DNA from: Candidatus Harrisonbacteria bacterium
GTDB taxonomy: Bacteria > Patescibacteriota > Minisyncoccia > UBA6257 > 02-FULL-45-10c
DNA: 64,000 nucleotides
Assembly: GCA_016214655.1 (NCBI GenBank)
Contig: JACROC010000005.1
Location: 195,078-259,077, forward strand
Reading direction: 5' to 3'
Under the pieces are notes generated by a model, which worked only from the letters and a program-made list of their open reading frames with translations, did no database searches and was not told where the DNA came from. Below, piece by piece: positions 26,984-35,037 of the stretch. Numbering within the stretch: the stretch's first letter is position 1; each line of letters opens with the position of its first letter. The position numbers and the translations under genes were made by a program.

Positions 26984-27961
26984 TTATTTTAAAACTATCC
27001 GGCGCAATTTGTAAGCATTCCCATGCCTCAATAATCCCAAATAAGAATTTATGATTTCTGGTTTTGGCAATTCTTGTATCCTCTTCATCATCCTTCTTTT
27101 AGTCGTTGTCCTTAATATCCGATGATCTAAAAAATTCACCCAGCCAAGAAAATCCACTCCGGAAGCAAGAGTTTTGATGGAAACTTTATTCGGGTGAAGC
27201 TCTAAAGATAATGTCTCATTCAGGAACGCTCTTATAAATAAGAGTGAGCGATTTAATGATTCTTTGTTTTCAGACAAAATCACAAAATCATCCGCATATC
27301 TTATGTAATATCTGGCCTTTAGTTTGTGCTTCATAAATCGGTCAAATTCATTCATATAGATATTGACTAGTAATTGGGAGGTTAGATTGCCTAGCGGCAA
27401 GCCGATTCCTGGCTTAACCTCAAAGCTATCAATGACTCTATCCAATAACCATAAGATATCTTTGTCTGGAATATGGCTGACCAGAATCTTCTTTAAGATG
27501 GAATGGTCAATATTGGCAAAGAATTTCTTGATATCGCACTTTAATATCCAGTAAGTTTGAGTGTTATTTTGACTGACTTTGTAGGAAAAATCCCGAAATC
27601 GGTTAATGGCTTTATGAGTTCCTTTGTTTAGACGGCAGGAATAGGAATCGGCAATAAAAATTTGGTCAAAAAATGGGTAGAGTATCCTATATATTGCGTG
27701 GTGTAATAATCTGTCTCTTACTTGGGCTTTATGGATATTTCTGGGTTTAGGGTCGCAGATATTGAATGCCTGGTACCCGCCGTGTACATACGTTTGGTTG
27801 CGAAGATCATTATGAAGCGATAGGATATTATCCATCAGATTAAAAGAGAATTCCTGGACATCTGGCTTGCTCCTTTTCCCTCTTACAAATTCTTTCCAGG
27901 CCTCTAATAAATTCTCAATGCTAATAATATCTTCAAATTTATGGCGCAATTGAATTTTCAT
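26984..27961 (-). CDS. DGR reverse transcriptase
   Basis: PKPRNI, RDRLLHHA, LKCDIKKFF, GLPLGNLTSQ (DGR-type SQ), YIRYADDF, VDFLG; no maturase or endonuclease domain. Confidence 0.95.
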   Translation of the reverse strand: MKIQLRHKFEDIISIENLLEAWKEFVRGKRSKPDVQEFSFNLMDNILSLHNDLRNQTYVHGGYQAFNICDPKPRNIHKAQVRDRLLHHAIYRILYPFFDQIFIADSYSCRLNKGTHKAINRFRDFSYKVSQNNTQTYWILKCDIKKFFANIDHSILKKILVSHIPDKDILWLLDRVIDSFEVKPGIGLPLGNLTSQLLVNIYMNEFDRFMKHKLKARYYIRYADDFVILSENKESLNRSLLFIRAFLNETLSLELHPNKVSIKTLASGVDFLGWVNFLDHRILRTTTKRRMMKRIQELPKPEIINSYLGLLRHGNAYKLRRIVLK

Positions 27962-27985
27962 AAAAATAATTTTTCCCGGGAAGCG

Positions 27986-27996
27986 CCCCCCCCCCC
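27986..27996. repeat. C11 homopolymer between divergent RT and avd starts
   Basis: aagcg-CCCCCCCCCCC-gact. Confidence 0.9.
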
Positions 27997-28001
27997 GACT
28001 T

Positions 28002-28370
28002 TTGCCGCTAATCCAGAAAACTAAGGACGCCTATCTGCTTTGGTATGGCTATTACCAAATCCTGCCTAAACTCCACCGGCACTCTCTAGGTCAGAAAGTT
28101 GATACTCTTTTTGTTGAAATTATAGAAATGCTCTCAACAGCCAATTTTCTTATCAGAGAAGAAAAATTGCCCTATGTTCGTGTGGCTATAAGAAAAGCAG
28201 ATACGCTGAAGATATTTTTAATGATGCTTTGGGAAACTAAATCGCTGGATAATAAAAAATACATCGCATTATCAACACAAATAGGCGAAATAGGCAGAAT
28301 GCTAGGCGGTTGGAGCGGCCAGCTTATCAAACAAGCTCAAGATAAACAAAACTCTCCTGACAAAAAGTGA
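28002..28370 (+). CDS. avd: Avd-like four-helix-bundle accessory protein, antisense to TR/RT; start uncertain (TTG 28002, or ATG 27941 if the tract is C10)
   Basis: LPKLHRHSLGQKVD..EIGRMLGGW signature of bAvd; located between TR and RT. Confidence 0.88.
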   Translation: MPLIQKTKDAYLLWYGYYQILPKLHRHSLGQKVDTLFVEIIEMLSTANFLIREEKLPYVRVAIRKADTLKIFLMMLWETKSLDNKKYIALSTQIGEIGRMLGGWSGQLIKQAQDKQNSPDKK

Positions 28371-28391
28371 GGAGAGAAATGAAGAGAGTTT

Positions 28392-28514
28392 CGAGAACGG
28401 CAGACGGATCGTTAACATTCCAGTCGTTGTCAAGCCAGTTGTAGTTCCAGTTCCACCTGCCATCGTTCCAGTACAGATACAGGACGTAGCGGTTGCCATT
28501 CGGGTTCCGAAGAA
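28392..28514 (-). repeat. DGR template repeat (TR)
   Basis: 123 bp aligned ungapped to 28879-29001; 10 Asn (AAC/AAT) codons; 29 adenines on the minus strand. Confidence 0.95.
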
Positions 28515-28783
28515 TTATATGGAATATCGTCTGTGCCACCACCCCTTGAATACTCTTAGAGTTGTATCGTATCCGGTATATCATTCAGTAGAATGACCTA
28601 CTGGGTTAATACCTTAATATTCCATACCAAGTATCTTCATTTTTTGTTGAAGTGTCTGCATACACCACTCTATCCGAAACCGTGATCGCGGATACTCCCG
28701 ATGTATGGATACTGGGTTCGGTAGCGGAAAACCGTAATCGTCCGCGTATTCACCTACTGCCAAATTTATTTTAGCAAAAAAAT

Positions 28784-28817
28784 AATCCCCTGCACAGGCT
28801 TGCCTGTGCAGGGGATT
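28784..28817 (-). terminator. Perfect hairpin 3' of the VR (DGR cruciform and/or terminator)
   Basis: aatcccctgcacaggc-tt-gcctgtgcaggggatt, followed on the minus strand by ATTTTTT. Confidence 0.8.
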
Positions 28818-28870: not shown

Positions 28871-29506
28871 CTAACTTGCGAGAACGGCAGACGGACCGTC
28901 AACATCCCAGTCGCTGCCAAGCCAGTTGCAGCTCCAGTGCCACCTGCCATCGAACCAGTACAGACACAGGACGTAGCGGTCGCCATCCGGGTACCGAAGA
29001 ACCGTTCCATCAAAGAAGATGAAACGGATGTTGCCGTTCACCTTCTCTTTCCACGATTCGGGGATGAGGAGCTGGTTCTCCCAGAGCGTCTGGAAGACCT
29101 TGGCATCCAGGCGGATGTGACCCGCCTTCTTCAGCCGTTTCAGCTTTTCCTCACCGGTGATCGACGTCTCGTTCGGATTGAGCATCGTCTCGAAGCGGAC
29201 CTTGGACAGGTCGACTTCGGTGAGCGCCTCCGAACGGGCGTCCGTGTCTTCGCCGACAACCGACCAACCCTTGCCGATGAAGGCGACGGGGTCGAACGGC
29301 TTGGCGCGATCGATCTTCAGGATCTTCGGTTCCCCGACGAGGACCTTTCCGCCGTTCTTGAGGAAGGCAGTGAACTGCTGTCCCGCCTGACGAGGGTCGT
29401 TGATGATTTTCTGGATGGTGTCGCTATCCAGATTGTCCCAGTCTGCGTTGTTAGCGAGGACTGAGAACAGGTTGAGGGACTGACCGGTAGTGATGGCTTT
29501 TCCCAT
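28871..29506 (-). CDS. DGR target protein with C-terminal variable region
   Basis: C-terminus LRYPDGDRYVLCLYWFDGRWHWSCNWLGSDWDVDGPSAVLAS matches the TR translation; AAAGGAG RBS; visibly GC-richer than host genes. Confidence 0.93.
   Translation of the reverse strand: MGKAITTGQSLNLFSVLANNADWDNLDSDTIQKIINDPRQAGQQFTAFLKNGGKVLVGEPKILKIDRAKPFDPVAFIGKGWSVVGEDTDARSEALTEVDLSKVRFETMLNPNETSITGEEKLKRLKKAGHIRLDAKVFQTLWENQLLIPESWKEKVNGNIRFIFFDGTVLRYPDGDRYVLCLYWFDGRWHWSCNWLGSDWDVDGPSAVLAS
28879..29001 (-). repeat. DGR variable repeat (VR)
   Basis: 14 mismatches to TR: 10 A>G, 3 A>T, 1 A>C. Confidence 0.95.
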
Positions 29507-29702
29507 TTCCGTTTCTCCTTTTTATCCGTTGCCTGACCGCCGTCCGTATTTGGCAGCCATAGCCAGAAAACCTCAATATTTAAGGGCTTTTGGCTATGGC
29601 CATCTTACAAATTACTAAATATAGTATAGCACTATTAGAGCTATTTTGTCAAGTTCGCCGTAGATAAACTACAATTATTTTTAACAACTAATATGAGGAA
29701 AT

Positions 29703-29799
29703 AAAATAAGGTTTTTGGATATTCAGGCTGGCGGTGGGATCGATTTCGCTCCCTTTAGGGAGCTTTATAAATATAGGCGATATCCAAAAACCTTATTTT
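29703..29799. repeat. 20-bp perfect inverted repeat enclosing a small hairpin
   Basis: aaaataaggtttttggatat (29703-29722)/atatccaaaaaccttatttt (29780-29799). Confidence 0.8.
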
Positions 29800-30551
29800 G
29801 TTTCCGAATCCCACTCTTTAATGGCTTTTTCCCAACGCTGTAAATTCCCACAGTCATGCCACTTCCCTTTTGATTTATAAGCCGCAAGTTTTCGTTCGGC
29901 GGCAAGCTTCGGAAAAAGGTCCTTTTCAATCATTAAAAATTTTTCACCGCTTTGTATTTTGTCGCTTAAATGTTCACGCACTTTCGGGTCAATTAAATAA
30001 AGACCCGAAGAAATAAAATTTGTCGGCGGATTTTCCGGTTTTTCCAAAAAACTGTGGATGTGATCGCCATCGCAAATTAAAACACCATACTCCTGCGGAT
30101 TTGATACTTCCACTGCCGCAATAGTTGCCAATCCTCCGACCTTGCGATGGTGGGCCGCCATTTCAGTCAAATTTACCTCTTTTAATTCATCGCCATTAGT
30201 TAAGAAAAATGGCTCACTGCCAGTCCAGGTATGTAGCTTATGTGCCCAATAGCCAAGCGTACCCATTGGCTCCTCCTCAACCATCAAATTTACCCACACG
30301 CCGCCAAGGTCATTCTGCCAACGCCGCAACCACCAAGAAAAATCTTCAAAATCACCTTGCCTGACCGTAATAGCAACTTCTTCTATGCCATGCTTTTTAA
30401 ACATCTCGATCAAATAATTTATGATCGGTTTTTTATTGACAGTTAAAAGCGGTTTTGGAGTTTCCAAGGTCACCGGATAAAGACGAGCGCCTTTCCCGCC
30501 GGCTAAAATTATTGCTTTGCGAACTTTCTGCATATTATTAAAATACAACAA
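29793..30551 (-). CDS. NDP-sugar pyrophosphorylase/nucleotidyltransferase
   Basis: AIILAGGKGARLYPVT..PKPLL, NGD, FLEKP, WHDCG. Confidence 0.9.
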   Translation of the reverse strand: MLYFNNMQKVRKAIILAGGKGARLYPVTLETPKPLLTVNKKPIINYLIEMFKKHGIEEVAITVRQGDFEDFSWWLRRWQNDLGGVWVNLMVEEEPMGTLGYWAHKLHTWTGSEPFFLTNGDELKEVNLTEMAAHHRKVGGLATIAAVEVSNPQEYGVLICDGDHIHSFLEKPENPPTNFISSGLYLIDPKVREHLSDKIQSGEKFLMIEKDLFPKLAAERKLAAYKSKGKWHDCGNLQRWEKAIKEWDSETK

Positions 30552-31105: not shown

Positions 31106-31317
31106 AACTGTAAATATACAATAGCATACTATAAAATTTTGTCAATAGTGACAAATCTTAGAATGGGTTATATAATTTACAATAAATTTGAATAAAGTAC
31201 CCCGTATAAATTTTACTCTTGGATATAGTAAAGATAAAATTTATACGGGATGCTCATTTTTGCAGCCAATCGGGCTGCGTTAGTAAATTAACTTGCCCTC
31301 TTGGGCAAAAATGGCAC

Positions 31318-31893
31318 ATGCTAAGCTACAACGAATTAAAAATTGGAACGATGTTCAAGTTTGAAGGAACTCCGTATGAGGTGCTGGATTATGAGTTCCT
31401 CCGGATGCAACAGAGAAAACCGGTCGCCAAGACTAGGATTAAAAATCTGCTTACGGGCCAAGTAATTGAACGAAACTTCCACCAAAATGAATCGCTGGAA
31501 TCCATAGAAATAGACAGGCAGGAGATCGTCTACTTATACAATAATCGCGGTGAGTTTTGGTTCTGCGAAAAAGGCAACCCGAAGAACCGCTTCAAACTGG
31601 AAGAATCCAAAATCGGACCGGCTGCAAAATTCCTAAAATCAAACAGCGAAGTCACGGCTGTAAAACTGGATGACCAGATTATCAGCGTTAAAGCGCCGAT
31701 TAAAATTGATTTGAAAATTACCGAAGCGCCTCCAGGAGAACGAGGCAACACTGCCCAAGGCGGAAGCAAGCTGGCTACCGTAGAAACTGGCGCTCAAGTT
31801 TATGTGCCGCTCTTCGTAAACACGGGTGATGTCATACGGGTAAATACAGAAACCGGACAATACGTTGAAAGAATGGAAAAGTCCAAGGAATAA
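31318..31893 (+). CDS. efp: Elongation factor P
   Basis: MLSYNELKIG..RMQQRKPV..PPGERGNTAQGGSK.A.VETG..VPLFVN.GD..GQYVER. Confidence 0.95.
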   Translation: MLSYNELKIGTMFKFEGTPYEVLDYEFLRMQQRKPVAKTRIKNLLTGQVIERNFHQNESLESIEIDRQEIVYLYNNRGEFWFCEKGNPKNRFKLEESKIGPAAKFLKSNSEVTAVKLDDQIISVKAPIKIDLKITEAPPGERGNTAQGGSKLATVETGAQVYVPLFVNTGDVIRVNTETGQYVERMEKSKE

Positions 31894-34840: not shown

Positions 34841-35037
34841 GTGACCTCTAATTAAATATCTTTAATAAATTGAAATCTTGATTTTGTATCAAGTTCCAGG
34901 CACGACGACGAAATTGTGGTGATAACCACATTGTTGCTCGTCGGAAAGGTAGGTAACCCTACGATTTCCTCCTCGCGCCTTGTATTTATTATAAAATTTC
35001 TCTTATCAATTAGCAAAGATATTTAATTAGAGGTCAC
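34841..35037. mobile_element. MITE-like element with 23-bp perfect terminal inverted repeats and internal palindromic units
   Basis: gtgacctctaattaaatatcttt/aaagatatttaattagaggtcac; internal AGGCACGACGACGAA-GTGG..CCAC unit. Confidence 0.7.

Follow-up and report, generated by a model that had tools for sequence, protein, structure and literature searches.

A cytosine run at the avd/RT junction of a Patescibacteria DGR: a probable slipped-strand switch of the avd reading frame

A 64,000-nucleotide stretch of Candidatus Harrisonbacteria DNA, analysed here as a whole and referred to as the window, carries a complete Patescibacteria DGR in which a run of eleven cytosines separates the likely start codon of avd from the body of the gene. 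The run is one base too long for the avd frame. Comparison of this junction with homologous loci makes it probable that the C11 tract mediates translational phase variation of avd by slipped-strand events, with the gene being mostly OFF. Such a switch would be random and heritable, and targeted hypermutation would be rationed by it.

The element displays the order target–TR–(avd)–RT and consists of the following parts:

26984..27961, minus strand: DGR reverse transcriptase (RT), 325 aa, with YADD at residue 222 (RVT_1, E 1.4e-24)
28002..28370, plus strand: avd body; its product has 122 aa, is basic (pI 9.6) and resembles the four-helix bundle of Bordetella phage Avd
28389..28514, minus strand: template repeat (TR)
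28606..28776, minus strand: conserved structured non-coding leader 5' of TR, between the VR hairpin and TR
28784..28817, minus strand: perfect 15-bp hairpin with T-tail, downstream of VR
28871..29506, minus strand: DGR target gene, 211 aa, without Pfam family
28876..29001, minus strand: variable repeat (VR), 15 changes, each at a TR adenine
29623..29652, minus strand: sigma-70-like promoter match (11/12, consensus match only), upstream of the target gene

Both genes are what the preliminary description had named them. The avd product scores 41.6 bits with the Pfam family bAvd (PF22296, cut-off 40), and the RT carries the RVT_1 domain with its YADD motif. When the PDB was searched by sequence, only chance hits were obtained and Avd was not reached. 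An AlphaFold model of a naturally in-frame Avd homologue is a four-helix bundle, the top PDB matches of which are Xcc0516 (2GSC) and Bordetella phage Avd (4DWL). The match to 4DWL has a TM score of 0.90 over the target and rmsd of 1.5 A at 15% identity (Foldseek E 1.1e-3).

All 15 mismatches between TR and VR, over 126 nt, correspond to TR adenines. VR forms the 3' end of the target gene, whose ORF ends 5 nt beyond the VR end. A GC-rich inverted repeat downstream of VR, a common though not universal DGR trait, is present here, and the hairpin at 28784..28817 may be the DGR target hairpin and/or a terminator. Two long intergenic inverted repeats lie further along the window, at 29697-29805 (26-nt arms, 96%) and 34841-35037 (92-nt arms, 71%). 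Upstream of avd, positions 27600-27940 contain no plus-strand sigma-70 match.

The non-coding leader at 28606-28776 was matched in 119 of 133 related loci. Two-sided changes were found in 19 of its 36 predicted pairs, it contains two similar hairpins, and an extended -10-like motif, TGnTAnAAT, can be read off the alignment at its 5' end. It has no match in Rfam and is likely to be the 5' part of the TR RNA of DGRs with the B3 architecture (see below). TR itself is situated within an open 85-codon frame with an ATG (28327-28584, minus strand), which is without Pfam match. Patescibacteria account for most of the named relatives; among nine candidate stretches from viral contigs, none encodes a relative.

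The junction between avd and RT, where the two genes diverge, has these elements:

27941..27943, plus strand: likely true avd start ATG, exact antisense of the RT His7 codon CAT
27944..27985, plus strand: avd leader codons with predicted disorder, in part antisense to RT codons 1-6
27951-27953, plus strand: TGA closing the avd frame upstream
27986..27996, plus strand: C11 homopolymer, exceeding by one base the length that the avd frame requires; putative slipped-strand switch
28002..28004, plus strand: TTG (Leu) where helix 1 begins; may serve this genome as a weak leak start
28022..28024, plus strand: TAA after the 27-codon out-of-frame product from ATG 27941

All these positions agree exactly with those of the preliminary description. 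Downstream of the TGA at 27951, the only start available in the avd frame is TTG 28002. The distance from ATG 27941 to the avd frame is 61 nt (3n+1), so that the shortening of the tract to C10 or its extension to C13 would bring both in frame, as had been proposed. C11 begins 45 nt after ATG 27941, which places an over-threshold repeat near the 5' end of the inferred avd reading frame. On the minus strand, RT starts with the ATG at 27961 and its first seven codons overlap ATG 27941 head-to-head; the complementary G11 lies 25-35 nt upstream of this RT start, in the RT 5' leader and outside the RT frame. The tract is about 1 kb away from VR.

C11 is the sole C/G run longer than 6 in the window, and in the whole 909,521-base genome only two C/G runs of at least 10 were found, C11 included. 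The other one is C12/G12 on another contig, near its end (G000 C4:108586-108597). It is located just past the stop of an ORF that resembles helix-turn-helix proteins by eye and before a minus-strand ORF resembling membrane proteins, and represents a second candidate variable repeat. Among the listed sequencing runs, the locus occurs in one DNA run and in no RNA run, and the listed contigs of that DNA run, which are of low depth, leave 27685-28259 uncovered. A putative EF-P-like ORF (31219-31893, recognised by sequence look) is situated 3 kb from avd with its proline-run start, probably by coincidence.

Homologous avd/RT loci were compared in two sets. The first comprised the window together with the 80 best loci out of 131 from genomes and the 80 best out of 353 from metagenomes; 14 loci were dropped due to contig edges or Ns and identical junctions were merged, which left 134 loci. 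The second set, fetched separately, originated from GTDB genome searches. It contained 114 loci, 40 of these stretches having been chosen among the highest-ranking matches without a locus so far, and was reduced to 99 by removal of 15 (eight with an edge or N, four without a divergent RT start, three duplicates of the first set). Since kin loci are not independent, p-values given below overstate significance.

In the first set, C/G runs of at least 8 are present at 105 of 134 distinct homologous junctions, as compared with two in the 611,112 bases that make up the rest of these loci, which exceeds chance, and the frame they leave avd in is variable. Tract lengths range from 7 to 13 and all three frames are found. 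In 15 loci, of which two belong to the first set and 13 to the second, CA, GA, CT, CAAC or CGAA repeats occupy the position of the tract. It is the repeat that is conserved and not its sequence. The units are 1, 2 and 4 nt long, none of which is a multiple of three, and changes in their number toggle the frame. In repeat-free relatives, proline runs are encoded by mixed codons.

Frame state of avd goes along with presence of the repeat. In the first set, avd is in frame in 12/78 loci with C8 or more, in 0/7 with C7 and in 10/13 with C6 or less. The three exceptions in the last group are a locus with a CGAA repeat, one with C10 just outside the search window and one with C6; one of the ten in-frame loci is a CA repeat. 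In the second set, avd is in frame in 16 of 81 loci with a repeat and in all 18 loci without one (Fisher p 9e-11, with kin not independent), and these 18 all use an upstream in-frame ATG. When loci with the His-antisense ATG and C7 or more are pooled from both sets, 18 are in frame and 62 and 46 fall into the two offsets. In other words, 108/126 are out of frame, and so are 10/13 loci with di- or tetranucleotide repeats. Among the pooled C7+ loci, the in-frame state falls short of a one-third share (p 2e-6), and no significant difference exists between the two offsets (p 0.15).

Several genomes and loci deserve separate mention. G475 has three such DGRs (L207, L253, L254), the CA-type repeats of which differ in length. 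G155 has two C10 paralogues (L196, L236), one in frame and the other out of frame via a base outside the run. In L001, L130, L174 and L242, insertions of about 100-200 bases separate the RT start from the tract, the one in L174 being a G-rich array of short repeats with an N gap. The genome studied here itself contains two further divergent avd/RT loci, one on contig C5 near 172 kb and the other on contig C4 near 60.6 kb. Both are repeat-free and have avd in frame, so Avd made from them could in principle complement the out-of-frame copy in trans. RT of the locus on contig C5 aligns in two pieces and may be frameshifted.

Interpretation of the tract depends on where translation of avd begins. 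Several lines of evidence argue that the avd start is under selection and that ATG 27941 is likely to be the real start. Among 108 intact RTs, 80 have histidine at position 7, and it is encoded by CAT in 79 of them, while the share of CAT at 13 other RT histidine columns is 42-80%. Because CAT is nearly invariant there in comparison with other histidine columns, ATG 27941 is not a mere by-product of RT His7. The frame that starts with this antisense ATG is open to the tract in 84/85 loci of the first set, the other two frames being open in 5 and 6; elsewhere in RT, 63% of antisense windows of the same length are stop-free. The second set gives the same picture (41/41 loci, with 7 and 10 for the other frames). 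In the repeat-free paralogue of the same genome (G000 C4 near 60.6 kb), too, the His-antisense position is occupied by an in-frame ATG.

According to the preliminary description, a family in which homologues start at the equivalent of TTG 28002 and lack the tract would speak against a switch. This is not what the alignments display: the TTG position has no start codon in 43/76 loci, and repeat-free loci begin at the upstream ATG. The codon preceding the TTG position encodes Leu, Ile or Val in 81/85 loci and is spread over synonymous codons, which suggests that translation passes through the TTG position from upstream. TTG accounts for 48% of Leu codons at the first body position and for 6-35% at 15 other Leu columns. 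In the model of the in-frame Avd homologue, residues 1-14 have pLDDT under 50 and helix 1 begins at about TTG. With a disordered leader and helix 1 starting there, a weak TTG start would yield a complete fold in this genome. Another in-frame ATG is available in 10/73 out-of-frame loci.

We also examined closely related records for changes of tract length. Four near-identical pairs differ, so tract length is not invariant between close records; invariance was the outcome that the preliminary description had named as unfavourable to a switch. Two of the pairs are discordant in frame: L081/L088 have C9 in frame and C10 out of frame with no other difference in 1,158 bp, and L086/L098 have C10 in frame and C11 out of frame with one SNP in 3,736 bp. 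The other two, L089/L090 (C10/C9) and L007/L008 (C11/C8), are out of frame on both sides. All these records are assembly consensus and may in part represent one sample assembled twice, so that stutter and real heterogeneity are inseparable in them. Thirteen other near-identical pairs are the same throughout, many of them being probably one data set filed twice. None of 41 A/T runs of 6-8 nt differs in 11,134 shared bases; because these A/T runs do not exceed 8 nt, they cannot serve as an error control for C runs of greater length. Frame state does not cluster on a quickly built RT tree of 75 rows, where it changes 37 times as compared with 37.8 in shuffled data, suggesting that the frame changes faster than these lineages diverge. 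This lack of tree signal speaks indirectly for switching within populations.

Slippage rates are raised where MutS and MutL are missing. Neither had a match in this genome, which is 98% complete, while 11 of 14 controls were matched.

Out-of-frame avd genes are preserved. Their body is intact in 72/73 loci of the first set and 65/65 of the second, and the median dN/dS is 0.08 (31 unsaturated pairs). RT is intact in 51/57 out-of-frame and 11/11 in-frame loci. TR/VR differences in out-of-frame loci are adenine-specific, with counts of 903 vs 46 in the first set and 973 vs 16 in the second. Intact avd and RT, taken together with adenine-specific TR/VR differences, suggest that Avd is made at least sometimes in these loci.

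The preliminary description had gone a step further and proposed that the OFF state freezes a useful VR variant. Its frame switch at the 5' end of avd, presently out of frame, is retained by our comparison; freezing of VR is not. VR is unchanged across the discordant pairs L086/L098 (in/out) and L089/L090 (both out), the comparison having left out L007, which ends inside VR, and L081, which is too short. Non-adenine TR/VR drift was detected in 16/57 out-of-frame and 0/18 in-frame loci of the first set (p 0.008; p 0.011 in another version of the test), and in 9/55 and 5/30 loci of the second (p 1.0). Given this null result in a separately fetched set, the drift was rejected as evidence for a link between frame and activity. 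In-frame and out-of-frame loci do not differ in the share of adenines that are mutated (p 0.42). A dependence of the rate of VR change on frame state is unsupported.

The main competitor of phase variation is a constitutive attenuator, in which every cell would make a little Avd through polymerase or ribosome slippage or through a weak TTG start, and the tract would drift almost freely. We regard it as unlikely, if well worth keeping in mind. In its favour, tRNA-Pro slips readily on CCC codons, the first body codon shows an excess of TTG, and disorder is predicted for the leader ahead of it. Out-of-frame loci also look refreshed as recently as in-frame ones, clean VRs fit a leak equally well, and VR is the same in the in/out pair L086/L098. 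Several observations stand against it, in particular the lack of a fixed shift: a shift of +1 would be required in 62 loci and one of -1 in 46 (p 0.15). No structure was detected downstream of the run (z +1.2), the TTG position is without start codon in 45/73 out-of-frame loci, and length differs at DNA level in the four pairs. Moreover, the same slot is filled by di- and tetranucleotide repeats such as (CAAC)11 and (CGAA)n, which are units of DNA slippage and, to our knowledge, not ribosomal slippery sites. A leak of this kind can coexist with phase variation. A fixed programmed frameshift was rejected, since both offsets are common, unit and length are variable and downstream structure is lacking; offsets that do not differ significantly, along with the deficit of in-frame loci, argue against one programmed shift.

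The remaining explanations have much less room. The tract could exert its effect through the opposite strand, where a G-tract in the DGR RNA or the leader of RT would influence spacing, structure or the RT frame, with the avd frameshift as a side effect. Its location in the RT 5' leader, 25-35 nt from the RT ATG, would fit, as would 6/112 tract-bearing loci without RT start between the tract and codon 7, but the other 106/112 have their own RT start downstream of the run, and TG, TC, AG, GTTG or TTCG repeats replace G-rich sequence in 15 loci. As it further leaves unexplained both the selection on the antisense ATG and the in-frame state of repeat-free loci, we consider it very improbable. Two specific forms were dismissed: a two-strand switch that also frameshifts RT is ruled out both here and in those 106 loci, and the G-run as a Shine-Dalgarno sequence of RT disagrees with its distance here and with non-G repeats elsewhere. 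Slightly less probable still is neutral decay, by which a mutable run would have arisen through collapse of polyproline codons, and avd genes that are out of frame would be pseudogenes in DGRs that are dying out. Mixed-codon proline runs in repeat-free relatives suit such an origin, and RT is broken in 6/57 out-of-frame but 0/11 in-frame loci; purifying selection largely refutes it, as avd is intact in 137/138 out-of-frame loci with dN/dS of about 0.08, TR/VR differences remain adenine-specific and several repeat types share the spot. We give the least credence to sequencing or assembly error, by which the real tract would be in frame in this genome and its relatives alike. Errors are frequent in long C/G runs, and N gaps occur at or beside the run in four loci (L030, L034, L174, L180). 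However, such an error would require a wrong consensus in 108/126 C7+ and 10/13 di- or tetranucleotide loci with all 18 repeat-free loci being right, and the gap in length between L007 and L008 amounts to three bases. A mistake confined to this one genome is conceivable and would leave the result for the family as it is.

Phase variation of avd by slippage of the tract, the reading we prefer, could proceed as follows. C11 sets ATG 27941 and the avd body one base apart in frame, and slippage during replication would lengthen or shorten this run of C's. Most cells would then make a short out-of-frame peptide and keep the current target variant. In a minority of cells Avd would be made, adenine-specific retrohoming would take place and VR would be diversified, until a further slip locks the resulting variant. 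Translation from ATG 27941 and switching at the level of population are inferred from the sequences compared. The need for Avd in the Patescibacteria DGR family is presumed by analogy with BPP-1, the source of the view of Avd as an essential, RT-binding pentamer required for retrohoming (PMC12875486, PMC5758913).

DGRs, the B3 architecture and SSR phase variation are each known; the question is the repeat in avd. The element shares with architecture B3, TR-(avd)-RT, the order of target, TR, opposite-strand avd and RT, as well as adenine-specific TR/VR changes and a GC-rich inverted repeat after VR (PMC5758913). B3 makes up 90% of the CPR DGR set of Wu et al. 2018 (PMC5758913), the main text of which does not contain the string "homopolym" and, in its accessible part, describes no repeat or frame switch in avd. 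The DGR of BPP-1 (avd-TR-brt; 4DWL, 8UB7) has the Avd fold and the logic of RT, Avd and TR/VR in common with the one described here. In BPP-1, avd is co-oriented and upstream of TR (PMC12875486, PMC5758913). Here, unlike in BPP-1, avd is antisense and overlaps the RT start head-to-head, with the repeat in its first codons. We know of no repeat in BPP-1 avd.

Programmed ribosomal frameshifting and transcriptional realignment are known to involve an out-of-frame homopolymer junction in a conserved gene. The avd locus shares such a conserved junction with programmed frameshifting; it differs in that direction (62 vs 46), length (7-13) and unit are not fixed and that downstream structure is missing. 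The resemblance to SSR contingency loci of Campylobacter, Neisseria and Haemophilus is closer in features: a repeat within the 5' end of the reading frame and a frameshift to an early stop (PMC6321876, which is also the source of the definition and cut-offs used here, 7 or more C/G or di-/tetranucleotide units), to which length variable between near-identical records and a host without MutS/MutL match can be added. Contingency loci concern surface, capsule or methyltransferase genes, whereas the gene gated here encodes a mutator subunit, so that one mutational device would control another. The host, an uncultured bacterium of free-water or groundwater type, is also unlike the usual hosts of such loci. 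No phase-variable DGR was found in the literature searched, which comprised openly available main texts in part.

As for the family, we lean slightly to the view that a large share of Patescibacteria DGRs are phase-variable mutators, in which a hypermutable repeat, having arisen anew with at least six different units, holds the essential Avd subunit OFF in about 5/6 of consensus genomes. This has practical implications. In the majority of these genomes avd is overlooked or cut short by gene callers, and a CPR DGR rebuilt from a consensus genome would likely carry the OFF state. The tract and VR can be phased on single long reads.

A 2026 paper describes the control of DGR activity in nature as an open frontier (PMC12875486). 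A DGR that is always active would erase good variants as fast as it makes them. The repeat in avd would act as a simple brake that can be recognised in the sequence alone, and this in the lineage with the greatest wealth of cellular DGRs. Activity of Patescibacteria DGR clade 2 is reported to be below average, with the qualification that purifying selection may mask activity (PMC8144416), and the brake would give a testable reason for this lower activity. If our view of the family is true, targeted hypermutation would fire in rare ON lineages and the next slip would re-lock it. Such DGRs would then possess a two-tier evolvability switch, in which generation of variants is decoupled from their keeping.
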